This document shows positions 4,523 through 56,360 of a stretch of 64,000 bases of DNA, piece after piece. The number at the start of each line of letters is the position of its first letter. Within the stretch, counting starts at the first letter, position 1. The stretch comes from Escherichia phage vB_EcoP-101114UKE3, in sequence record NC_070982.1; one strand, given 5' to 3'. The notes beneath the pieces were generated by a model, which saw only the letters and a program-made list of their open reading frames with translations, ran no database searches and was not told where the DNA came from. The translations under genes were made by a program, and so were the position numbers.

Positions 4523-7500
4523 ATGGCGCTTTATCCAATAAAATCTTTAGGGGCTGTAGGGGTTATTGCTGACCAAGCTCCGACTGATTTAGCACCTAAT
4601 GCTTTCACTAATGCTATCAATGCCCGCTTTGTAGAGCAAAGAGTTTTTAAGACGGGGGGCAATGCCCCTCTTTCTTATGTAGAAGAAGATAAAGAGATTA
4701 CACCACTTTCTTTTATATCAATGCCTTTTGACTACTATAGTGCAGGTAATAGCTTTCTGATTGTTGGTACAGACAAAAAGCTATACAAGCTAACAGATGA
4801 AAGTTTGACAGATATTAGCCGAAAGGTTGCTACTGTCACAAAAAGAGCTTCCGCTTCTATTAAGATATATCCGGTTGTTTCTCAGATTGTTCCTAAAGAA
4901 ACTTCTATTTCAATGAATTTCAATCAAACTAAAACCTTGGAAGTTTCTATTCTTCCTGAAGATGCTAATAACACAGCTTTAGTTTGGGAGGTTAGTAATT
5001 CTTCTTATGGTAAAGTAGAAGCTGACACCGAGAACCCTAAAACTGCAACCTTGACGTCTTATGAAAAAGAAGGGAATTTAGTAGTTACTGTATCAACAGC
5101 TGATAAATCTATTAGTGCTCAGATTGCAGTAAACATCATAGATGGTGATTCTGGTATCTTCTTAAGTCAGGATACAATAACTGTCCGCAAAGGTGGTAAC
5201 ACAACACTAACTGCTGTTACTGGAAAAACTCCTGTAACTTGGGTCTCTAGTAATGCTTCTGTTGTGTCTGTAACACCTAATGCTAATACACTGACAGCTA
5301 CTTTGTCTGCTAATGGTGAGGGTACTGTAACAATAACTGCTGATAACGGAACTAAGAGTGCTTCTTGTCAAATTACTGTTATACCTCAGATAGACAGTAT
5401 CACTCTGAGTCAGACAAGCGTTCAAATGAGCAGGGGTACTCAGTATGTTTTAACTGCTACGGTTAATCCTTCAGATGCTCCCAATAAAAGCATAACTTGG
5501 ACTTCCTCTAATCCTGCCATTGCCACAGTTTCTGGAAATAGTACAGAAGCGGTAATAACAGGGTTACTAGCTGGGTTTACTGAAATCACAGCTGTTACTC
5601 AAGAGGGTGATAGATCAGCAACCTGTACAGTGAGAGTTGATTTAGCTGGGAGAATGATGCGAACTTCTGCAATGGCTTTATCAGAACCTGTTGTAGATTC
5701 TATACAAGAAGAAGAAACCAATAATACTCCTATCGAATCAGAAGAGGTTTTATATTTTGTTAATGAGCCATCTGGAGTTGATACCTCAGGGATGTATGAA
5801 GGTAACAACTTCTATGATTACTCAAACGTCAATGATATGGAAGGTTTTGCACGAGCTGCACTTATGTCCAGCGATACTCCGTTGCAATCTTTATCACTAG
5901 ATATCATCGATGCCTCTCTTGATGTTGGGGAAGATATTGTAATTACAGCCAATGCTTTGCCTGAGGGAGAGTATTTCTATCAGTGGACAGTGGACAAAGC
6001 AGGATATGTTTCAACCACATCTACTACCGGGAAATCTCTAAAACTGACAGCTATTCGTAAAGGTGAGATCAAAGTTACTTGTACTGCTAGTCAAATGACT
6101 CAGAAAGATTATGATGCTTTTGACGACTATCCTTGGTATCACACCATAATCTCTAACTGTGCAGTGGCTACCACTCACTATGAAACACCACAGGTCAAAG
6201 AATTTGAATCTGAGTATTTCGTAGATCTTCCGGGATGGGGTGAGCAAACAGTCGTTGATAATGATGGCAACCCTTCTGTTAAGAAATTTAACTGGAAGTG
6301 TGAGCGTATTCGTGCATTCAACAACAGACTTTTTGCTCTGAATATGAGGGAATCTAATGCATCTGGTGTAACTACTCACTACCCTCTAAGACTTCGGTGG
6401 TCGAATTTCGCTAACGAAAACAAAGCTCCATCTCTTTGGGATGATTATGCTTATGATCGTTTAACAACTTCAGACCTATCAGCAAACATTGTTGGTCAAA
6501 CTGAGGCTTTGGAAAATGGGTACGCTGGGTATATAGATTTAGCAGATTCTAACGGAAGCTTGATTGATGTACTTCCTCTGAAAGATTACCTTTTTGTTTA
6601 CACGGAGTTCGAAACCTACATTGGTTCTCCAACCAATAACACATATCAGCCTCTTATGTTTAAGAAGCTGTTTAATGACTCTGGCATACTTGCTCCTGAG
6701 TGTGCAGTTGAAGTCGAAGGTGGACACTTCGTAGTAACTCAAAATGATGTGATCTTACACAATGGTGCATCTAAAAAATCTATAGCATCTAACCGAGTCA
6801 AGAATCTTCTCATTAATGAGATCTGTCTAGTAAACCCTCTAGCTACTAGAGTTCACCTACACCAAGACAAGAAAGAGGTTTGGGTTTTATATGTAGGTCC
6901 GGGAGAGCCTAAAGAGAGTTTTGCTTGTAATAAAGCCGCTGTTTGGAATTATGAGTTTGACACTTGGTCTTTCCGTACAATACCATATGCTCAGTGTATT
7001 GGGTTAGTCGATCCACCAGTTCTTGAGAGAGGTCCAATCTGGGCAGATTTTCAAGAGATCACTTGGGATGATCCCTCTATTAACCAATTAGTCTGGAGAA
7101 AGGATGCTAATAACTTCCGTCAAAGGATTACAATAGTTGGCTCTTTCCTGAAAGGATTCTATCAAGTGGATGTTGGTGCTCTGGATTACATCTATGATAG
7201 AACCAACGATAGGATTATAGAAAAACCTTTAGAAATGAGGCTAGAAAGAACTGGTATTGATTTTGATAGTGTCACTAACGAGTGGAATCAAAAACATATT
7301 AATAGATTTAGACCTCAAGTCACTGGTACGGGTACCTATACTTTTGAAGTCGGTGGAAGTCAATTCTCAAACGAGTATGGACATAATCACTCAACTAAAG
7401 AGTTTAGGGTAGGCTCAGATCGTCATGTATCCGTGAGACTGAACCATCCATACCTATTCTATAATGTTATAGATAATGATGTTAACAGTAATGCTTCTAT

Positions 7501-10411: not shown

Positions 10412-11464
10412 ATGTCTCTTTTCGGTTCTGCTCCTAAATCTAAGACTACGGTAGCTCCGTCTTCTCAGGTTGATGCTCTTCTGAAACAGATTGTAGCAAA
10501 TGCTCAGGCTATGAATCAAAACGATCAAGGTTTTATTAATCGTAACATAGCAGGTTTTAATGAAAATCAAACAGCAGCTCTTTCTAATTTAGCAAATTCT
10601 AACACACTCAACCAACTCAGTCAGATGTACACCCCTAGAACTCAACAAGGGTTGGACCAGATGAATGAGTTGGCTCAGAAATATCAAAACCTAGTTAATA
10701 AGGGTGGTATCTCCGCTCAAGATGTTAATAATTTTAGCTCTGGACTGAATAACTCTGCACTAGCTAAGTCTACAGGTAAAGCTGCTGCTAATATATCTCT
10801 TGGTAATGGCTCTGATTCAGGTTCTCTGAGACGTGCTGCTGCTCAAGGTGCTGCTCTCTCTTCAGCGAATACAAATCTTTCTCGTTCTATTCAAGGTAAG
10901 AATATGGGTGTTAACACTCTTCTGAATAACAACTCCTATCAGCAAGGTTTGCTCAATGCTCAGTCTGGTTTAGCAAATCAGAACCTGAATCTAGGAGCTG
11001 CTGGGGTACAAGCTGGTCAACAGGCAATACATAATCAGCTCACTGCCGGGAATCTTCAACAGCAGCAAGATCAACTCCAAGCTAACAACAATTGGGAGAA
11101 TGCTATTGGCAATCAGCAGTATGGTTGGAATCAGCTTAACAATCAGCTTAATGTATTAAACTCAGTAAGTCCAATGGCTGGGTACACTATTACTAATAGA
11201 GGTGCTGCCCCTAATGCTTCACAACAAATCCTTGGTGCTGGGGTTACTGGTCTTGGTATTGCTGGTCGTCTAGGTGCTTTTACCCCTAACCAGCAAACTA
11301 CTAATGCTTGGAATTCGTACAATGCTTCTGGAGGTCAAGCTGGGATGGCTGGTCCTATGATTGGTGGCTCAAACCTGTCTCAACAGAACGGTCAGAGCAA
11401 CTGGTTATCTACCGCAGGGAGTAATATCTTAGGTGGTGTTCTAGGAGCCTTTGGAGCAAATTAA
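10412..11464 (+). CDS. internal virion protein, Q/N/S-rich
   Basis: low-complexity Q/N/G/S composition typical of podovirus internal core proteins; SD aaggagg. Confidence 0.45.
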   Translation: MSLFGSAPKSKTTVAPSSQVDALLKQIVANAQAMNQNDQGFINRNIAGFNENQTAALSNLANSNTLNQLSQMYTPRTQQGLDQMNELAQKYQNLVNKGGISAQDVNNFSSGLNNSALAKSTGKAAANISLGNGSDSGSLRRAAAQGAALSSANTNLSRSIQGKNMGVNTLLNNNSYQQGLLNAQSGLANQNLNLGAAGVQAGQQAIHNQLTAGNLQQQQDQLQANNNWENAIGNQQYGWNQLNNQLNVLNSVSPMAGYTITNRGAAPNASQQILGAGVTGLGIAGRLGAFTPNQQTTNAWNSYNASGGQAGMAGPMIGGSNLSQQNGQSNWLSTAGSNILGGVLGAFGAN

Positions 11465-11473
11465 GGAGGAGCT

Positions 11474-12442
11474 ATGGCTTTATTTGGTGGTGGGAGTAGC
11501 AAGACTACTTCTAAAATGACAAGACCTGACTACATTCAATCCTATATTGATCAGTTGGTCAATCAGGTTAATAACACTAGTTCAGGCGATTATGTGTATC
11601 GAGAAAATGTTGGACTTAATCAAAACCAGCAAGAAGCTCTGAATAATCTATCACAATCTGGTGCATTAGGTGCACTTTCTTCTCAGTATATGGATGCTGC
11701 TCAATCTGGCTTAGGTTATCTAGATAATGCATACTCTGGATATAACAACCTGTCTAACTCTGGTCAAATCACTGGGGAACAGATTGGTGCTCTTGCAGGC
11801 CAGCTCTATGACGATGAGGCTGTGCAAGCAGCTATTGCAGCGAATAATGAACAAACCCAACAGAGTTTGGCTAGGAATGCACTTCCTCAAATCTCTCAGC
11901 AGTTTGCTGGTCAGCAAGGTTCTGGTGCACGTATGGCTAAATCTTTTGCTCAGGGTGATGCTCTGAACCAGATGCAGAACACAGCAACTAATATTACTAA
12001 TAGTGCCTATGACTCCGCTCTAACTCAAGCACAGAACATTCTTTCTGGTAATAGACAAACACAAGCATCTGCTTTAGGTGGTTTATCTAACATTGGCTCC
12101 AATCTTGCTAATCTAGGAAACCAAGCTGGTCAGTTATCACAACAGCAAATGATGAATCAGTGGAATGCAGGACTGCAACAGCAGCAACAACAGCAGTCTG
12201 ATTTGAACAATGCTTATGAGAATGCTCAGAATGCTGCTAATTGGGGTTGGCAGGATATTAACAATCAACTAGGTGCTGCCGGGGTTCTTAATGGAGCTTT
12301 AGGGACAACCACAACTACTAAAACATCTGGTGGTAGTGGAGGCTTCCTAGGTGGTGCTGCGAGTGGTGCTGCTGCTGGTTCAGCTTTTGGCCCTTGGGGT
12401 GCTTTAGCTGGCGGTGTTATCGGTGGATTAGCTAGCTCTTAA
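11474..12442 (+). CDS. internal virion protein, Q/N-rich with Gly-rich C-terminus
   Basis: composition and operon position. Confidence 0.45.
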   Translation: MALFGGGSSKTTSKMTRPDYIQSYIDQLVNQVNNTSSGDYVYRENVGLNQNQQEALNNLSQSGALGALSSQYMDAAQSGLGYLDNAYSGYNNLSNSGQITGEQIGALAGQLYDDEAVQAAIAANNEQTQQSLARNALPQISQQFAGQQGSGARMAKSFAQGDALNQMQNTATNITNSAYDSALTQAQNILSGNRQTQASALGGLSNIGSNLANLGNQAGQLSQQQMMNQWNAGLQQQQQQQSDLNNAYENAQNAANWGWQDINNQLGAAGVLNGALGTTTTTKTSGGSGGFLGGAASGAAAGSAFGPWGALAGGVIGGLASS

Positions 12443-14148: not shown

Positions 14149-14159
14149 ATAATGTATAT
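14149..14159 (+). promoter_or_regulatory. phage-specific promoter-like motif TAATGTATATA
   Basis: motif 36 nt upstream of ATG 14195; near-identical copies upstream of three minus-strand genes. Confidence 0.5.
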
Positions 14160-23268: not shown

Positions 23269-23279
23269 TATATACATTA
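23269..23279 (-). promoter_or_regulatory. promoter-like motif TAATGTATATA (minus)
   Basis: about 60 nt upstream of SSB start. Confidence 0.45.
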
Positions 23280-23341: not shown

Positions 23342-23352
23342 TAATGTATATA
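23342..23352 (+). promoter_or_regulatory. promoter-like motif TAATGTATATA (plus, divergent)
   Basis: exact motif on plus strand in 410-bp ORF-free region; no downstream plus-strand gene. Confidence 0.35.
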
Positions 23353-23625: not shown

Positions 23626-24246
23626 TTACCATTCAAGTAAACCTTTAAAGTTAGTTTGTTCTACTATCCTCTGATAAGGTAAGTTAGATTCTGCTTGTTT
23701 GCTTAACACCTCTTGTACTTTATCAGTAATTGAATAATCTTTTTGTAATAAAGAAGCTACCCACTCTTTCCTACTTTCCAGTTCTTTTCTAATCTCTTGC
23801 AGAGACACAGCTCTGTAATCAATTTGTTCCATAGAAGTACAGAAGTATCTCCAATCTCTGATAGTAGAATTATGAGTATGAGCATAGATATTATACTTTC
23901 CTCTCATTTCATCAGAGTGAATAGGAATATGAGTTACCCAAAACTCTTTGTACTTATAATCACCACTGATGTGTCTAAAGACTTTCATCATATCAGGGAG
24001 AAGTTCTAATCTGTCATGGTTTCCTAAGACAAGATGTTTCTCTCCTTTTACTTCAGCGATAATATCAAGTGCATATTTCTCAAACACCCAATCACCTGTA
24101 AAGAAAGTTTTATCACGTTTAGTAACATGGTCAAACGCTGCTAAGATAGCTTTGTCGTGTTCTTCAATACTACTAAACTTCTTCCTAAAGTTACAGATGT
24201 TACGATGGCCTAGGTGACCATCACCTGCAAAATAAACTTCAGCCAT
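23626..24246 (-). CDS. calcineurin-like metallophosphoesterase
   Basis: GDGHLGH ... GNHD motifs. Confidence 0.65.
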   Translation of the reverse strand: MAEVYFAGDGHLGHRNICNFRKKFSSIEEHDKAILAAFDHVTKRDKTFFTGDWVFEKYALDIIAEVKGEKHLVLGNHDRLELLPDMMKVFRHISGDYKYKEFWVTHIPIHSDEMRGKYNIYAHTHNSTIRDWRYFCTSMEQIDYRAVSLQEIRKELESRKEWVASLLQKDYSITDKVQEVLSKQAESNLPYQRIVEQTNFKGLLEW

Positions 24247-24457
24247 TCTCGTATGTGTCCTCGTAATATGAGTAGTTGAAGGATTCAGCTTTCGTTTCAG
24301 CCTCCTCCCTATCGTCTGTTTCTAAAATAACTCTCCAGCCAAAACCCTCAGGATACTCAGCCCCTTCGTCTAGCCAGACTTTATATCGTTTAGATAGTGC
24401 AACCATCGCAGATGTAATCTCCACTGAGTGACTCTTGTAGGAGGCGAGATTGTTCAT
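24239..24457 (-). CDS. small hypothetical protein (paralog of 24974..25153)
   Basis: shared KRYKVWLDEG...GWRVILETDD pattern; start uncertain. Confidence 0.35.
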   Translation of the reverse strand: MNNLASYKSHSVEITSAMVALSKRYKVWLDEGAEYPEGFGWRVILETDDREEAETKAESFNYSYYEDTYENG

Positions 24458-24593
24458 CTGACACCAGTTTGTCAACCTCCTCTTTCAGAGCCATAAGGTC
24501 AACAAAGGTTAGTAGCTCATGCCGGTCAGCAATTATTTGGTATTTGTAATCACTGATGTGCCCTACGGTTTGTGCGACGTAAATATTAGACAT
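24390..24593 (-). CDS. small hypothetical protein
   Basis: 67-aa ORF. Confidence 0.35.
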   Translation of the reverse strand: MSNIYVAQTVGHISDYKYQIIADRHELLTFVDLMALKEEVDKLVSDEQSRLLQESLSGDYICDGCTI

Positions 24594-24817: not shown

Positions 24818-25020
24818 TTAACTTCCTCAATATCAACTAATTCAAAACTTCCTATTTCTTCAAGCTTAATAATCTCTTTAACTTTCTCAACAGCTTTAAT
24901 AGGGTTTTCTTCTTCTACAACTTTACACCCTGATACTTCAAGACTGCCTGTTCCACGAAGGTATAAATTCAACTTATAAACTACTTTGTAGTATCTCATC
25001 GTGCTCCCAATTTCTTTCAT
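24814..25020 (-). CDS. small hypothetical protein
   Basis: 68-aa ORF. Confidence 0.35.
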   Translation of the reverse strand: MKEIGSTMRYYKVVYKLNLYLRGTGSLEVSGCKVVEEENPIKAVEKVKEIIKLEEIGSFELVDIEEVK

Positions 25021-25153
25021 AATATCCAGAGTTGTAGTTTAGGGCGCATTTCTCGGCCTCTTCTATGTCGTCTGTGTTTAGGATATTAACCCAACCACCA
25101 ACTTCATCAAAACCCTCTTCTACCTCATTGAACCACACGCTGTATTTCTTCAT
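24974..25153 (-). CDS. small hypothetical protein (paralog of 24239..24457)
   Basis: start MKKYSVW at 25153 overlaps upstream stop (ATGA). Confidence 0.4.
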   Translation of the reverse strand: MKKYSVWFNEVEEGFDEVGGWVNILNTDDIEEAEKCALNYNSGYYERNWEHDEILQSSL

Positions 25154-25329
25154 CTTGATAAGACCCTTCCCCAATCCTTGATGTAACATCGACCATCAAC
25201 CCACTTGGTCTCTGATTTAAACTTTTGAGAGATTCTTGTTTCACAGTCTTCTTTACTGTAATCACCAAGAGCATCCATCACCCAAAGAAACAGAGCAATT
25301 ACAATAGACCAGATTAGAAACTTCTTCAT
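25150..25329 (-). CDS. small membrane protein (59 aa), not in ORF track
   Basis: MKKFLIWSIVIALFLWV...; ATGA overlaps with both neighbours. Confidence 0.35.
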   Translation of the reverse strand: MKKFLIWSIVIALFLWVMDALGDYSKEDCETRISQKFKSETKWVDGRCYIKDWGRVLSR

Positions 25330-28910: not shown

Positions 28911-29180
28911 TTACTCCACTGTCGGGAATGGTTTTAGGTTGTTCATGGCTGTACGAACATCAGCACAGATTTCAGGATCACGATAAGAGAGGAATTTACC
29001 ATCCTTACCACGAATCATTACATTAGTCCGTGATGTTTTATTAGGCAATAAAGAAATCCCTCCAATAAGATGGTTGGTAGGGTGTTGTCCTTGATTAACC
29101 TTGTAGTCATGAGTCTGAGCGTCACCATTAAAGAGATGATCACGAATTTGGATTAAGCTAATCTTCATATTATGCACCAA
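28911..29180 (-). CDS. small protein, tandem paralog
   Basis: shares TxRTNVxxRGxDGKFxSxRD...NLKPFP with next gene. Confidence 0.4.
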   Translation of the reverse strand: MVHNMKISLIQIRDHLFNGDAQTHDYKVNQGQHPTNHLIGGISLLPNKTSRTNVMIRGKDGKFLSYRDPEICADVRTAMNNLKPFPTVE

Positions 29181-29421
29181 AGTTAGGGAAAGGTTTCAGA
29201 TTTTCAATAGACTTAGCAATACGCTTAGGAACAGCCTTATCACGGAAGGAGATGAACTTTCCATCAGGACCACGAAGGGCTACATTAGTACGAGCTGTTG
29301 TTTTGTTAAACTGAATCATCTCAACAGAGCTTGTAACATTTTCTACAGGAAAAGTATAGCTCTCAGTTGTGTTCAGAGAAGGGAGGAAATCAGTTACAGT
29401 GATGTAAGTTACTTTAGACAT
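29170..29421 (-). CDS. small protein, tandem paralog
   Basis: start MSKVTYI at 29421 after terminator hairpin. Confidence 0.4.
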   Translation of the reverse strand: MSKVTYITVTDFLPSLNTTESYTFPVENVTSSVEMIQFNKTTARTNVALRGPDGKFISFRDKAVPKRIAKSIENLKPFPNFGA

Positions 29422-29826: not shown

Positions 29827-29836
29827 GTATACATTA
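29827..29836 (-). promoter_or_regulatory. promoter-like motif TAATGTATAC
   Basis: variant of TAATGTATATA about 35 nt upstream of start at 29792. Confidence 0.35.
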
Positions 29837-31552: not shown

Positions 31553-31747
31553 TTAGATAACCTTGTGCTTATAGATGTTAGGGTTGTAGTAATGCAACCA
31601 GTTTATGTATTGTTTCTGTTCAAGGTAGTGTCTGCAATCATGACAAAAAGCATGACCCAAACCTGTTTCCTCGTTCAGCTTGAAGTTGATAAGAAGCTTC
31701 TGCTTTTGACAGAAGCTACATGCTTTAGTGGGCTTCACGTAATGCAT
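31553..31747 (-). CDS. small zinc-ribbon protein
   Basis: CSFC...CHDC cysteine pairs; start chosen to minimise overlap with ThyX. Confidence 0.35.
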   Translation of the reverse strand: MHYVKPTKACSFCQKQKLLINFKLNEETGLGHAFCHDCRHYLEQKQYINWLHYYNPNIYKHKVI

Positions 31748-32375
31748 CCCATGAGATTGGGAAAAGTTTACGAAGCTCTTCATCAACAGTTGATGCGAAC
31801 ACTCGTACTTCATACTGAGCATGGTCGGACAGTCGCTGACGACATAACTCTGACCAGCCATATAAAGAACCTGTCCACACCCACTCAGTGATCATACCTT
31901 GAGGTAGAACGAATCGGGCTTGCTCTGGAGCAATAAACTTAATCAACTCATCATATGACTCAAGAGCTGTTTCATATGCCCGATTAATCAGAACTAGTGC
32001 AGAGTTTTGCGCTCCCGTGGTGAGGAGATTCCCCGCACCTGCATGGAGGTCCGAAGGTCTTTCAAAAATCTCTTTAGGGATGAAGAGTTCAACTGCTCCA
32101 TCTTTATACCGCCGGGACATTTCGTTCCACGAGAATCCAACTTGATGCTTGCCCAGCTGTCTCGCAATTGCGATTGGCGCTTTGCATCGGAAGCTAATTG
32201 TCGGATGGCGGAATGGTGTGACATGCTTTTCTCTGGCAAGGAACTTGATAAGGCGTTCATCTCGTTCATTTAACTCTCCTTCACGAGTAACCCCAAAGGA
32301 AACTCGAGCTGCATTAACAACAGATTTATCAGAACCCATTGCTTCAATTAGTGTTGCTTGTAATTGTTCGTTCAT
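31725..32375 (-). CDS. thyX: flavin-dependent thymidylate synthase-like (ThyX)
   Basis: PFRHPTISFRCKAPIAIARQLGKHQVGFSWNEMSRRY aligns to ThyX signature region, with K-H-Q in place of R-H-R. Confidence 0.7.
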   Translation of the reverse strand: MNEQLQATLIEAMGSDKSVVNAARVSFGVTREGELNERDERLIKFLAREKHVTPFRHPTISFRCKAPIAIARQLGKHQVGFSWNEMSRRYKDGAVELFIPKEIFERPSDLHAGAGNLLTTGAQNSALVLINRAYETALESYDELIKFIAPEQARFVLPQGMITEWVWTGSLYGWSELCRQRLSDHAQYEVRVFASTVDEELRKLFPISWDALREAH

Positions 32376-32389
32376 CCTTGAATTCTTCC

Positions 32390-32605
32390 TTAGTAATGAA
32401 TCTTTTTATAAATCAGGTTGCTTCCACTTTCTGTTTCAATCCCTTTCTGGATTGTAATCTTAGAAGCACCGGTATTAGCAATTTTTAAAGCTCGTTTAAA
32501 GCGGCGAGCCTCTCTCCGTGTTGTGTATGAGGAGAAGCTAGGGATTGTACTATCAAAATTAAACCACTTAACTACCCAAAAAGTAATCCAAGGTTTCTTT
32601 TCCAT
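32390..32605 (-). CDS. small protein, TR(Q/R)EAR family paralog
   Basis: TRREARRFKRAL ... KKIHY shared with 34470..34685 and 34685..34897. Confidence 0.4.
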   Translation of the reverse strand: MEKKPWITFWVVKWFNFDSTIPSFSSYTTRREARRFKRALKIANTGASKITIQKGIETESGSNLIYKKIHY

Positions 32606-32606
32606 A

Positions 32607-32882
32607 TTAAATACCTTTCAGAGCTGTATCTAAAAACGCACGGAGGTTTGATTCAGTTTGCATACCGGACAAGCTGTAGTGAGCACCACTGTTCATGTTA
32701 GGAACCACAAAGGCTGGGATACTGCGAACACCATATTCAATGGCTCGCTCTCGACCATTACCTTCAGAGATATTTACTTCTTCAACTTCTACGTTGTAAT
32801 CAGCTACAACTTTCTTAAACACAGGAGCCATAGCTGCACACGGAGCACAGGAATTACTATAAAACTTAATTACTTTACTCAT
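32607..32882 (-). CDS. thioredoxin/glutaredoxin-like protein
   Basis: start MSKVIKF; CAPC active-site motif. Confidence 0.65.
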   Translation of the reverse strand: MSKVIKFYSNSCAPCAAMAPVFKKVVADYNVEVEEVNISEGNGRERAIEYGVRSIPAFVVPNMNSGAHYSLSGMQTESNLRAFLDTALKGI

Positions 32883-33072
32883 TTTATTCCTTGTTAATAA
32901 ACAGATTGATATGACGTTGGGTAGCAGGAACAACAATAAAAGATTTATACTGACCTTTTGCTAAGTCATGAGCAATCTTCTTTGTCTGACTAAGACCCAT
33001 TACACAGCCACTAACAATAATAGCATGTGCTTGTAGCTCTTCAGGTAGGTTTAGTTTCACTCTTTGGGTTCC

Positions 33073-33258
33073 TTATAGCATACAAAGAATAATAACAAGA
33101 GGTAGTGTTATAGCAAAATGTACCAGAACAACACTACCTAGCTTGATAGCTTTAACATCCTCTTCTGCTGGGTTTTCTTTAATTGCTAAATTTCGAGCTT
33201 TATATATAACAGTACCAACTATTAACGACCACACGGCCCACACAATCAGTGAAATCAT
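33073..33258 (-). CDS. small membrane protein (tandem paralog)
   Basis: two TM segments; similar to 33268..33489. Confidence 0.45.
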   Translation of the reverse strand: MISLIVWAVWSLIVGTVIYKARNLAIKENPAEEDVKAIKLGSVVLVHFAITLPLVIILCML

Positions 33259-33267
33259 ATCAAACCC

Positions 33268-33489
33268 TTATGCAGTCAACAGGTGGAGAAGGAAAGGAAT
33301 GACAACAGAGAAGACTACCAGAGCAATGCTGCCATGTTTAATGGGTTTAGCGTCATTCGGGTTCTCTTTAAGCATCTGTTTCTGAGCTACATAAACGATA
33401 CCGCCAACAAAAATTGCCCATACAGACCATACGATTGCTGAAAACATACTCATATCCTTATAAAGAAGTTCGCCCCACCTCTTGAACAA
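33268..33489 (-). CDS. small membrane protein (tandem paralog)
   Basis: two TM segments. Confidence 0.45.
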   Translation of the reverse strand: MFKRWGELLYKDMSMFSAIVWSVWAIFVGGIVYVAQKQMLKENPNDAKPIKHGSIALVVFSVVIPFLLHLLTA

Positions 33490-33510
33490 AGAGACAGGGC
33501 GGAGGTTTGA

Positions 33511-34086
33511 TTAGTAAGACACATCACCACTGGAGTGGGACATGTTGCTCTTGACGAAGTAACAGAACTTGCCAAGACCTTCATTAATTTCTTGAAGCAT
33601 ACTCTGGTCCACTGGATAGGTGCACAAGTCTGAATCAAACTCATCCATCTTCTCAATGATACACATAAGAGTCATGCACATGTCGGAAAGCATACCGTCC
33701 ATGTCAAGATCAGCGTTACCTTCTCGGAACCAAGCATGACCTAAATAATTACTAGCAGTAGCATCCACTTTAACACAATGAAAGCGCATACGCTCTGCTA
33801 TTCGGTCGCCTGCCTCACGAGCATAATCTTCTAGTTCATCGAACATACCATGAACACCTTGGAAACCAGCTCCAGAGACGTTCCAGTGGTAGTTCTTTGC
33901 TTTGATGTGTAGAAGTTCAAGGTTAGCTTGCACACCACACAAGATGTGTTCTAAGCTGTTACCGCTAATCAGTTTATTCATTCCCTCAAGACGAGAGATA
34001 GAAGAGTCAGTAGCAGAGAATGGGTTGCTAGAACCCACTCGTGTTAGTTCTGGTAAGTCGAAGACATTATTATGCATTAGGTGCAT
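33511..34086 (-). CDS. Dps/ferritin-like protein
   Basis: YHWNVSGAGFQGVHGMFDELEDYAREAGDRIAER matches Dps ferroxidase-site region. Confidence 0.55.
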   Translation of the reverse strand: MHLMHNNVFDLPELTRVGSSNPFSATDSSISRLEGMNKLISGNSLEHILCGVQANLELLHIKAKNYHWNVSGAGFQGVHGMFDELEDYAREAGDRIAERMRFHCVKVDATASNYLGHAWFREGNADLDMDGMLSDMCMTLMCIIEKMDEFDSDLCTYPVDQSMLQEINEGLGKFCYFVKSNMSHSSGDVSY

Positions 34087-34399
34087 CCCCTTCTAAGTTA
34101 GTTGAATTAGCTACATTACGAGCAATGTTATCCATGACCTGCTGTGTAATAACAATGCAATTCTGAGGGTCTACTGATTTAGAACGCCCCATCTCAGGGT
34201 CATAGACTTTGACTCGCTTGGCTGTTGAGCCAGTAACTTGCAACACTTTGAGAAGATAGCCTTGGTTTCCAATAGACCATGCAACAACATCACGATTCTT
34301 GATATAACGACCAAGCATGTCACGATGATAGAACTGCTGCATAACTTTAGCTTTGCTAATCTCTTCAGATGGCGGGGCCACTTTACTCAAATCTAACAT
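34070..34399 (-). CDS. hypothetical protein
   Basis: second ATG (MLDLSKV, 34399) has AGGAG SD; promoter motif just upstream. Confidence 0.4.
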   Translation of the reverse strand: MLDLSKVAPPSEEISKAKVMQQFYHRDMLGRYIKNRDVVAWSIGNQGYLLKVLQVTGSTAKRVKVYDPEMGRSKSVDPQNCIVITQQVMDNIARNVANSTNLEGDAPNA

Positions 34400-34435
34400 A
34401 ACTCTCTCCTGTTTCATACAATATTCTTATACTGT

Positions 34436-34446
34436 ATATACATTTG
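34436..34446 (-). promoter_or_regulatory. promoter-like motif AAATGTATATA
   Basis: about 37 nt upstream of start at 34399. Confidence 0.45.
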
Positions 34447-34469
34447 AGAGTTATCATATCTACTACCAA

Positions 34470-34685
34470 CTAGTAATAAACCTTGCTGGATATGAATCCA
34501 GCACTGTTATGGATATTTTCAATCCAACGATGAATCTCCACCTTTTCAGCGATTCCTAAAGCTTTTGTAGCTTTTATAGTTTTCTTAGCAAGACGAGCCT
34601 CTTGTCTTGTGTTGAATAATTGAATACAATCACCACCAAGAGCTTTGTTAGCCCATTTAGTACGAACTGCCCATAATTTATCCAT
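34470..34685 (-). CDS. small protein, TR(Q/R)EAR family paralog
   Basis: NTRQEARLAKK. Confidence 0.4.
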   Translation of the reverse strand: MDKLWAVRTKWANKALGGDCIQLFNTRQEARLAKKTIKATKALGIAEKVEIHRWIENIHNSAGFISSKVYY

Positions 34686-34897
34686 TAGTAATGTACCTTT
34701 CCGCTGATATAGAAACGACCTGATTTAAAGTCTTGAGCTTTGTGGATAGTGATCTTATTAATTGTGCTTTCACAACTTAATAAGAACTTCTTATGAGCGC
34801 GAGCTTCTTGACGGGTATTCCTAATACCCATTGACTCTGTACCACTGCTCCAGTGAATACGAACTACCCAACGTCTTTTCATTGTTCCAAACTCCAC
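34685..34897 (-). CDS. small protein, TR(Q/R)EAR family paralog
   Basis: NTRQEARAHKK. Confidence 0.4.
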   Translation of the reverse strand: MEFGTMKRRWVVRIHWSSGTESMGIRNTRQEARAHKKFLLSCESTINKITIHKAQDFKSGRFYISGKVHY

Positions 34898-35088
34898 TAT
34901 CTGTCAACCGATTTAGGGACAAACTGCATTACACAGACCTGACTACGAGGGAGATTTATTTCACAAGCGGCTCTTCTCGTCTCAATCTTAACGCTAGAAT
35001 CTGGACCAACGTTAGATATAAATACTCCCATAGCAAATGCCCCAACTACAAAACCTATAGCTAAGTAAGTAGCTTTTTCTTCTTTCAT
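34897..35088 (-). CDS. small membrane protein
   Basis: TM segment LAIGFVVGAFAMGVFI. Confidence 0.35.
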   Translation of the reverse strand: MKEEKATYLAIGFVVGAFAMGVFISNVGPDSSVKIETRRAACEINLPRSQVCVMQFVPKSVDR

Positions 35089-35093
35089 CTTGG

Positions 35094-35627
35094 TTATACA
35101 CCCTTAGATGCAACTACACCATTACTGCCGTTGTATCGACCCTTCACTGCATAAGAGTCATCACCAGCGTGAGAGTGTTCGAACATAACCATTTGACCAA
35201 CACGCATCCCAGCACGAACTCGTAAGCTATGATTATGGGTAACGTTATGAAATTCAAAGGTTAGTTTACTGCTGTTAAACCCTGCATCAGCCCAACCAGC
35301 ATGGAGGTGGTTTAAACCACAACGAGCCATTGAGGAGCGAAGTACAAACAGGCTTGAGATGTTATCTGGAAGGTTAAACTCTTCCATTGAGTGCGCTAAG
35401 AAGAATTGCCCCGGAGTGATAACAATACCATCTTCAGGGATTTTTACTTCTTTCCACTTGAGGTTTTCTTTAGCATCAATGTCAACAATTCCGTCAGCCT
35501 GTTCTTCAACAAGGATAGTATCACCAATACGGATATCCACGCTAGCAGCGTTAACATATTTATGCTCCGCATCTAAAAAGCCATTATCAATAACGCTGTG
35601 TAATTCTTGAGAACCTAAAAGACTCAT
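35094..35627 (-). CDS. dcd: dCTP deaminase (dUTPase-fold)
   Basis: HAGWADAGFNSSKLTFEFHN motif. Confidence 0.7.
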   Translation of the reverse strand: MSLLGSQELHSVIDNGFLDAEHKYVNAASVDIRIGDTILVEEQADGIVDIDAKENLKWKEVKIPEDGIVITPGQFFLAHSMEEFNLPDNISSLFVLRSSMARCGLNHLHAGWADAGFNSSKLTFEFHNVTHNHSLRVRAGMRVGQMVMFEHSHAGDDSYAVKGRYNGSNGVVASKGV

Positions 35628-40935: not shown

Positions 40936-41174
40936 AGACTCGTTACTCCCTTATCTGCTTGTGCAATTGCGATGATACGCTCAGCACATTCCATTGAATA
41001 CTTATCACCTCGTTTGAGGAAGGTGATGATTGCAGAGAACTGATTACCAATCATTCTCTTATTTGTGATACCAAACTCTTCACAGAGTTGGTTGATAGCT
41101 TTACGAGAGCCTACAATCAGAGGCTCTTTTTCTTCGGTCATTCCACGGCTGATCAAATCTTCGATAGACAACAT
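40932..41174 (-). CDS. small hypothetical protein
   Basis: 80-aa ORF. Confidence 0.35.
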   Translation of the reverse strand: MLSIEDLISRGMTEEKEPLIVGSRKAINQLCEEFGITNKRMIGNQFSAIITFLKRGDKYSMECAERIIAIAQADKGVTSL

Positions 41175-50446: not shown

Positions 50447-50489
50447 CTCACATAGCCCTCTGATACTCACAAGGGCTATAGATGTTACT
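50447..50489 (-). repeat. conserved hairpin element, copy A
   Basis: CACATAGCCCTCTGATACTCACAAGGGCTATAG directly after stop codon; 8-bp stem, 12-nt loop; near-identical copy at 56084-56130. Confidence 0.5.
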
Positions 50490-50733
50490 CTGTGGCTCCG
50501 TCGAATCGGAGGATTGCTGCTGGAACAGGGTATGCTTCCAGATCTTCATCCAGTCGGTATAGATGCCCTGTACTTAAATTTACAGCTGTTACTGGCTTAG
50601 AGTGGCCTCCAGCCTGTATGGAAGGAACTCTGATAAAGAACTCTTCTGGATATTCAACAGAGTGGAACACACTTCCTGAATAAAGATCTTTTATTTTAGA
50701 AGTTTGTTTAGGAGTTTTATCAGCAATTTTCAT
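50485..50733 (-). CDS. small protein, five-member paralog family
   Basis: L-x-x-G-[DS]-x-F ... V-x-L-S-x-G pattern shared with 51854, 52124, 54939, 56130 ORFs. Confidence 0.45.
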   Translation of the reverse strand: MKIADKTPKQTSKIKDLYSGSVFHSVEYPEEFFIRVPSIQAGGHSKPVTAVNLSTGHLYRLDEDLEAYPVPAAILRFDGATE

Positions 50734-53740: not shown

Positions 53741-53816
53741 TGGTGCGCCCTACAGGACTCGAACCTGTAACCAATAGCTTAGAAGGCTACTGCTCTATCC
53801 GTTGAGCTAAGAGCGC
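53741..53816 (-). tRNA. tRNA-Arg(UCU): tRNA-Arg (anticodon UCU), CCA encoded
   Basis: hand-folded cloverleaf: 7-bp acceptor, D arm GCTC/GAGC, anticodon loop CTTCTAA, T arm ACAGG-TTCGAGT-CCTGT, discriminator A plus CCA. Confidence 0.85.
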
Positions 53817-54042: not shown

Positions 54043-54207
54043 TTAGATCAGATCTGTTTTCTTGTGCAGACCACACACTTTACAGCGAGAGTAGATACGC
54101 AACCCTTGTCGCTCTCTGTCAGTAAGTTTATTTGTGATCGTCAGTTCATAAGTATGAAGATCTTCCCACTCATGGAAATGAAATAGACGTTTGAACCATT
54201 TGATCAT
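54043..54207 (-). CDS. small zinc-ribbon protein (triplet member), not in ORF track
   Basis: 54 aa MIKWFKRLFHFHEW...CKVCG; near-duplicate N-terminus of 54217..54402. Confidence 0.4.
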   Translation of the reverse strand: MIKWFKRLFHFHEWEDLHTYELTITNKLTDRERQGLRIYSRCKVCGLHKKTDLI

Positions 54208-54216
54208 AATGATTCC

Positions 54217-54402
54217 TTAGATTACATCACGATGACTAATATCACCACACACCTTACACTGAATAATGTAACGTGTGCCCTTGTCATTGTTCCCATCTGA
54301 ATCCGTATAGACCAGAGGACGGGTGTTAATAATCTTCCAATCATGACAATGGAAGACACGCTTTAGCCACTTAATCATATTAAGCACACGCCGGTAATTC
54401 AA
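54217..54402 (-). CDS. small zinc-ribbon protein (triplet member)
   Basis: MIKWLKRVFHCHDW...CKVCG. Confidence 0.4.
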   Translation of the reverse strand: MNYRRVLNMIKWLKRVFHCHDWKIINTRPLVYTDSDGNNDKGTRYIIQCKVCGDISHRDVI

Positions 54403-56083: not shown

Positions 56084-56130
56084 CTCACATAGCCCTCTGA
56101 TAAACACAAGGGCTATAAGTCGATGTTACT
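56084..56130 (-). repeat. conserved hairpin element, copy B
   Basis: CACATAGCCCTCTGATAAACACAAGGGCTATAAG directly after stop of 56130..56360. Confidence 0.5.
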
Positions 56131-56360
56131 TAACCATTAATATGAGTTACTTGAACATCAGGTACAGGGATAACTTCATGGTCTTCCTGTAATTGGAACA
56201 GTGTCCCCTGACTAAGACCAACCACACGATGCATATCGTTAAGTCTAGTGTCTGTCTTTAGGTAGACATTTTCAGAGTTAGTTGGTAAACGGAACACATC
56301 GCCCGGACGTAACTCACTGAGCTTTTTAGTAACAACTACAGAGAAGAGATTAATTTTCAT
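56130..56360 (-). CDS. small protein, five-member paralog family
   Basis: LRPGDVFRLPTNSENVYLKT ... VVGLSQGTLFQLQED. Confidence 0.45.
   Translation of the reverse strand: MKINLFSVVVTKKLSELRPGDVFRLPTNSENVYLKTDTRLNDMHRVVGLSQGTLFQLQEDHEVIPVPDVQVTHING

Follow-up and report, generated by a model that had tools for sequence, protein, structure and literature searches.

The 64,000-nt stretch of DNA of Escherichia phage vB_EcoP-101114UKE3 analysed here (record NC_070982.1; the whole stretch is called the window) encodes three small basic proteins with a shared TR(Q/R)EAR motif, which are annotated in GenBank as hypothetical proteins. The explanation that, taken as a whole, we find somewhat more credible than its competitors together is that the three genes belong to one ancient and real family, whose lineages are tied to their positions in the genome and whose products would be small nucleic-acid-binding factors. 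The finding is correct but ordinary, with little reach beyond the phiEco32-like group of phages: the region is already public in GenBank, and PHROGs already contains the family, uncharacterised and without an assigned function. The gain lies in a cleaner description of the family, with five position-tied lineages, one of them universal (the gp70 type of phage phiEco32), and two fixed slots next to the genes dcd and thyX.

Homology of the three copies

The three open reading frames (ORFs) lie on the minus strand at 34685..34882 (beta, 65 aa), 34470..34685 (gamma, 71 aa) and 32390..32605 (delta, 71 aa), where beta, gamma and delta are the names of the lineages described below. An earlier note on this DNA had read them as paralogues, and pairwise alignment supports that reading, with BLASTP E values of 6e-10 for beta and gamma (32% identity), 2e-9 for beta and delta (37%) and 2e-5 for gamma and delta (31%). 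Smith-Waterman z scores reached 14.2, 14.7 and 8.8 for the three pairs, and none of 2000 shuffles attained the observed score. Moreover, all three proteins cover positions 1-67 of the 67-position profile of phrog_4939 (E 3.5e-26 for beta, 2.6e-22 for gamma and 5.9e-22 for delta), a family that includes gp69 (phi32_69), gp70 and gp71 of phiEco32 and of which the window proteins are full members, with no difference. The motif that the note had quoted is right. In an alignment of 89 family members the columns W5, T23, R24, A27 and R28 are invariant, and K31 (97%) and the C-terminal Tyr (98%) nearly so. A hidden Markov model (HMM) built from the family and run over the window found no fourth copy.

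The extents of the ORFs in the note also stood, whereas it probably set three start codons too far upstream, by a few codons each. The beta gene most likely starts at the ATG at 34882 and not at the GTG at 34897, the former having a GGAG 9 nt upstream and being the start given in GenBank. In the same way, two genes of the other duplicate pairs treated at the end of this text are annotated from ATG 33447 instead of TTG 33489 (second membrane-protein gene) and from ATG 29168 instead of TTG 29180 (the 28911 gene).

Ancient lineages in two genomic slots

Escherichia phage vB_EcoP-101114BS3 (MZ234015), a phiEco32-like podophage, shares the region 32000-35200 at 100% identity, and this region is matched at 92-99% by HC-25922, IME267, Bas87, Bas88 and ECBP2, all of them phiEco32-like podophages of the Gordonclarkvirinae. 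The three genes belong to the replication and nucleotide-metabolism module of the minus strand, with the DNA polymerase gene on one side of them and the primase/helicase genes on the other. Only beta and gamma, adjacent to each other, are in tandem; delta lies about 1.9 kb away in a second conserved slot. The first slot (slot A) is bounded upstream by the dCTP deaminase gene dcd (35094..35627, minus strand; from its annotation, and with PF22769 in relatives), which is separated from beta by the gene of a 63-aa hydrophobic protein outside the family (34897..35088, minus strand; phrog_7508). The second slot (slot B) is found between the gene of a thioredoxin-domain protein (32607..32882, minus strand; so annotated in Bas87, and with PF00085 in relatives), directly upstream of delta, and that of the thymidylate synthase ThyX (31725..32375, minus strand; from its annotation), directly downstream.

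In a neighbour-joining tree of 89 distinct members the clades follow genome position, and each window copy groups with same-position orthologues from other genera, to which it is closer than to the paralogues of its own genome. Five lineages can be told apart in this way. Those found in the array after dcd are alpha, with phiEco32 gp71 as reference and no copy in the window, beta, represented by phiEco32 gp70, and gamma, represented by phiEco32 gp69; those found between thioredoxin and thyX are delta, which lacks a reference member, and epsilon, with Bas87_0057 as reference and again no copy in the window. The family HMM recognises gp71, gp70 and gp69 of phiEco32, whose genes occupy the same slot after dcd as the window array.

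The number of copies differs between related phages in both slots. There are three copies after dcd and none before thyX in phiEco32, three and one in 4E8 and KBNP1711, two and two in Bas87, two and none in ES17, and two and one in this window, while metagenomic relatives have one to three after dcd and none or one before thyX, for a total of two or three in the module. A tblastn search with beta in a collection of isolate phages matched 97 records, all of them Escherichia or Shigella phages of the phiEco32-like group, and beta is the one lineage present in every related record. Alpha matches 65 records (61 of them at 60% identity or more), and delta is found at 90% identity or more in only 17 phage records. 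Such variation in whole units is seen between Kuravirus-like phages that are candidates for therapy. Extra copies in slot B comprise the fourth family copy of Bas87 (Bas87_0057) and those of two metagenomic contigs (L022 and L023), which have no HNH gene; in Bas87 (4869-5556 of locus L002) and in ECBP2 (469-936 of locus L017) an inserted HNH endonuclease gene separates thyX from the slot-B copies.

A closer comparison concerns alpha. In phiEco32, gp71 directly follows dcd, and the window has no counterpart of it, while KBNP1711 carries both the alpha copy and a membrane gene of the 34897..35088 type. The leader before the first copy is the same in the window and in KBNP1711, yet the first copy of the latter is alpha; the DNA homology between them is lost about 6 nt into this first copy and returns only towards the end of beta. 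The difference fits the presence or absence of one whole unit, by a mechanism that is unreadable from the sequence. We do not claim that the window beta is an alpha/beta recombinant arising from unequal crossover, as it groups with the beta clade in the tree and its body is too diverged for a closer reading.

The ratio of nonsynonymous to synonymous substitution rates (dN/dS) of the copies against their orthologues in Bas88, ECBP2 and 4E8 ranges from 0.04 to 0.43, with values of 0.04 for beta and 0.43 for gamma against Bas88, and of 0.05-0.24 for delta. These ratios show the three copies to be real genes under purifying selection. As read from the sequences, the duplications are ancient and predate the present genera, and the current variation is one of retention of whole units. 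The family would have been born by tandem duplication long before the genera split, giving rise to what are now at least five position-tied lineages: alpha, beta and gamma form a back-to-back array just downstream of dcd, with delta and epsilon between thioredoxin and thyX. Genomes vary in which whole units they have lost or gained, and the window is one that keeps beta, gamma and delta, without alpha and epsilon.

Among 1.84 billion representative proteins, an exhaustive scan with HMMER returned 19 clusters, of which 18 are genuine, all of 65-78 aa. The top match of the scan, a protein of 1518 aa (P0011), was treated as spurious: it is made of 22 near-perfect tandem repeats of 69 residues, each stretch contributing about 6 bits, so that its score is a sum of weak stretches, it lacks the invariant residues of the family and it looks like a translated satellite. 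From 5.8 billion proteins, a word-indexed search drew 64 members, all of 48-72 aa and encoded on contigs of at most 79 kb. Salmonella phage 7-11 (NC_015938) has a distant member in an unannotated ORF of 73 aa at 40945-41166 (minus strand), about 55 nt of which overlap the annotated gp055 (hhalign probability of 94% over the N-terminal half; E 1e-7 with the HMM); gp075 of the same phage, the small gene before thyX, was rejected as a member, with an hhalign probability of 0.2%. A single copy is present in Aeromonas phage LAh_8 (E 5e-14 with a wider HMM), a marginal match occurs in Proteus phage 3H10_20, and structure matches in BFVD also point to SE131 and GAP52. Altogether, the family is confined to podophages of the phiEco32-like type (Gordonclarkvirinae), apart from single, more distant copies in relatives among the 7-11-like, Proteus and Aeromonas phages.

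As regards expression, Shine-Dalgarno-like sequences precede the start codons of the copies. Within the array, the ATG of gamma overlaps the TAA of beta (TAATG), an overlap of stop and start that suggests translational coupling; in slot B the TAA of thioredoxin is followed by one base and then by the ATG of delta, which ends 14 nt before thyX. The 52-nt gap between gamma and the next gene holds the sequence AATGTATA at 34437-34444 (minus strand), the core of tAATGTAtA, the promoter motif for the phage sigma factor of phiEco32 and SU10 (PMC4281155, PMC8948821), and a promoter is annotated at the equivalent place in the record of phage 4E8. Given this putative promoter in the gap after the tandem pair, the slot A pair and the slot B copy probably belong to different transcription units. 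Further exact matches to AATGTATA are found at 29828-29835 and 23271-23278 (minus strand) and at 14151-14158 and 23343-23350 (plus strand), and over the whole window the sequence shows no enrichment, with 5 matches against 3.0 expected. A terminator-like hairpin at 34484-34503 (minus strand), with an 8-bp stem followed by AGGTTTATTA, lies within the last codons of gamma, immediately ahead of the putative promoter, and may be where the upstream transcription unit ends.

Possible roles and alternative explanations

Two independent AlphaFold (AF2) models, of beta (pLDDT 79.5) and of delta (pLDDT 88.1, pTM 0.74), predict the same topology, a single domain of the type beta-beta-alpha-beta-beta, which spans 65-71 residues in the window copies. 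In the predicted fold the invariant Trp lies in strand 1, the T-R-x-x-A-R-x-x-K stretch starts the sole helix, and the conserved Tyr is C-terminal. In every lineage the proteins are strongly basic, with isoelectric points of 9.8-10.8 and net charges of +7 to +10 in about 70 residues. No Pfam family matched the three proteins at E <= 1, scans of Pfam, NCBIfam and PADLOC gave nothing for them or for 23 family members, and no match in PADLOC-DB was obtained at E <= 0.1 for nine proteins of the region, where PADLOC models defence proteins and not anti-defence proteins. The family DUF2188 (PF09954), considered for its similar 'W.V...F.T..EA' pattern, was not among the six weak families matched by the 23 members. 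A sequence-profile search of the PDB returned non-significant matches only. In these the profile aligns weakly to the strand-3/helix-2 region of RRM domains (CUGBP1/CELF1), matching the stretch 'F.TR..A..A', but with non-significant E values of 0.6-0.74; the RRM topology is beta-alpha-beta-beta-alpha-beta, unlike that predicted for the family, and membership in the RRM fold thus fails on both profile significance and topology. A search of the literature for the family, its motif or phiEco32 gp69-71 found nothing relevant, nor did we find a fold class assigned to the family.

From the charge, the conserved Arg/Lys stretch and the place of the genes in a replication and nucleotide-metabolism module, we infer nucleic-acid binding, a step that, considered by itself, is our best guess and a tentative one. 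The proteins would be small nucleic-acid-binding factors co-produced with the replication and nucleotide-metabolism genes, touching DNA or RNA with the sheet and the basic face of the helix, while the diverged paralogues would each have targets of their own or work together as hetero-oligomers. Since it is conserved, strongly basic and under purifying selection, the family would be a sensible choice, out of the many unknown genes of the replication module in these phages, with which to begin functional tests.

A different role, which we consider unlikely, is that of protein-binding modulators of host factors in host takeover or anti-defence, the paralogues having diversified for different host targets. 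Small phage-specific proteins in several diverged copies, whose number differs between close relatives and which have no enzyme-like fold, would be in keeping with such a role. An arms race, however, is not what dN/dS values of 0.04-0.43 and positional orthology across genera look like, and the genes are found in the replication and nucleotide module and not in the variable early region, where the host-takeover genes of this phage group are thought to lie (PMC8948821). PADLOC, with its defence models, gave no match for the copies. Many known DNA-mimic inhibitors are acidic, and the strongly basic copies are unlike them.

Less probable still is that the copies serve the enzymes of dTTP supply (Dcd, thioredoxin and ThyX) as accessory or regulatory subunits, tethering them, for instance, into a complex. 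The positions of the genes speak for it: slot A comes straight after dcd, slot B lies directly in front of thyX and is coupled to the stop codon of thioredoxin, a member lies immediately upstream of thyX (Thy1) in the rearranged distant relative L020 as well as in L005, L007 and L022, and the single copy of Aeromonas phage LAh_8 is two genes away from thyX. All these phages are related, however, so that shared synteny is weak evidence. Both phiEco32 and ES17 have thyX without a slot-B copy, the only copy of Salmonella phage 7-11 is about 8 kb from thyX, where the preceding gene is unrelated, and the marginal match of Proteus phage 3H10_20 adjoins an endolysin gene. A broader proposal joins this idea to nucleic-acid binding, with the family as a class of small basic cofactors, so far unrecognised and linked to the supply of thymidylate in phages, which would bind nucleic acid or ThyX/Dcd and act as hetero-oligomers coupling dTTP synthesis to the replisome; we regard it as a long shot.

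With respect to their origin, a recent and ongoing duplication within this genome has almost no chance of being right and is already refuted. Two of the copies are indeed adjacent, with overlapping stop and start, but their protein identity is merely 31-37%, and similarity at the DNA level is almost gone, the sole direct repeat that links the three copies being one of 30 nt with 73% identity at the gene ends (KxHY-stop). Moreover, in the tree each copy stands nearer to orthologues from other genera than to the paralogues beside it in this genome. Chance similarity, or ORFs that are not genes, an idea for which we found no support beyond the short length of the ORFs and their annotation merely as hypothetical proteins, is equally refuted and more improbable still, in view of shuffle z scores of 9-15, PHROG HMM E values of 1e-22 or lower, conservation in 97 phage genomes and dN/dS well below 1.

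Other duplicated genes and features of the window

The claim of the earlier note that local duplication of small genes recurs in this genome holds: there are indeed seven paralogous groups. One qualification is that the duplications are ancient and inherited rather than recent events in this genome. These groups, found in an all-against-all BLASTP of the window ORFs, comprise 15 genes, six of the seven falling each in one PHROG, with identities of 30-48% across groups. Both of the additional pairs that the note had proposed were recovered. The membrane pair (33073..33258 and 33268..33447, minus strand) consists of small proteins with two hydrophobic segments (45% identity, E 4e-17), the first with a GRAVY of +1.27, and both match phrog_9296 (E 2e-30 and 5e-32, respectively). 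The pair with the pattern RTNV..RG.DGKF.S.RD...NLKPFP (28911..29168 and 29170..29421, minus strand) is 36% identical (E 6e-15), both members matching phrog_6814 (E 6e-31 and 4e-30).

Four pairs beyond those of the note also exist in the window. Two adjacent proteins of 320-350 aa encoded on the plus strand at 10412-11464 and 11474-12442 are 30% identical (E 4e-11) and both belong to phrog_4287, 'DNA ejection protein', a tandem duplication in the structural module. The others are small-gene pairs of the minus strand: 24974-25189 and 24239-24475 (phrog_10314), the tandem pair 54217-54402 and 54043-54207 (phrog_8294), and a dispersed pair at 50485-50733 and 56130-56360, assigned to phrog_6570 and phrog_16423. 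Like the TRxEAR copies, the pairs of phrog_9296, phrog_6814, phrog_8294, phrog_10314 and phrog_4287 are mostly adjacent, 30-48% identical and contained in one PHROG per pair. The TRxEAR family, unrelated to the others in sequence, is alone in having three copies here and in occupying two slots.

Between the two slots, the gene at 33511-34086 (minus strand) is labelled 'integrase' in MZ234015 and several relatives. This seems to be a mistake of annotation, since its orthologues carry the Ferritin/Dps domain PF00210 and its phiEco32 counterpart is named a Dps-family DNA-binding protein. A strong terminator-like hairpin of 13 pairs, 7 of them G-C, is found at 33471-33501 (minus strand) between this Dps-like gene and the first membrane-protein gene. 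Finally, a tRNA gene (Rfam RF00005, 70.8 bits) occurs at 53744-53816 (minus strand), among genes of the early region.

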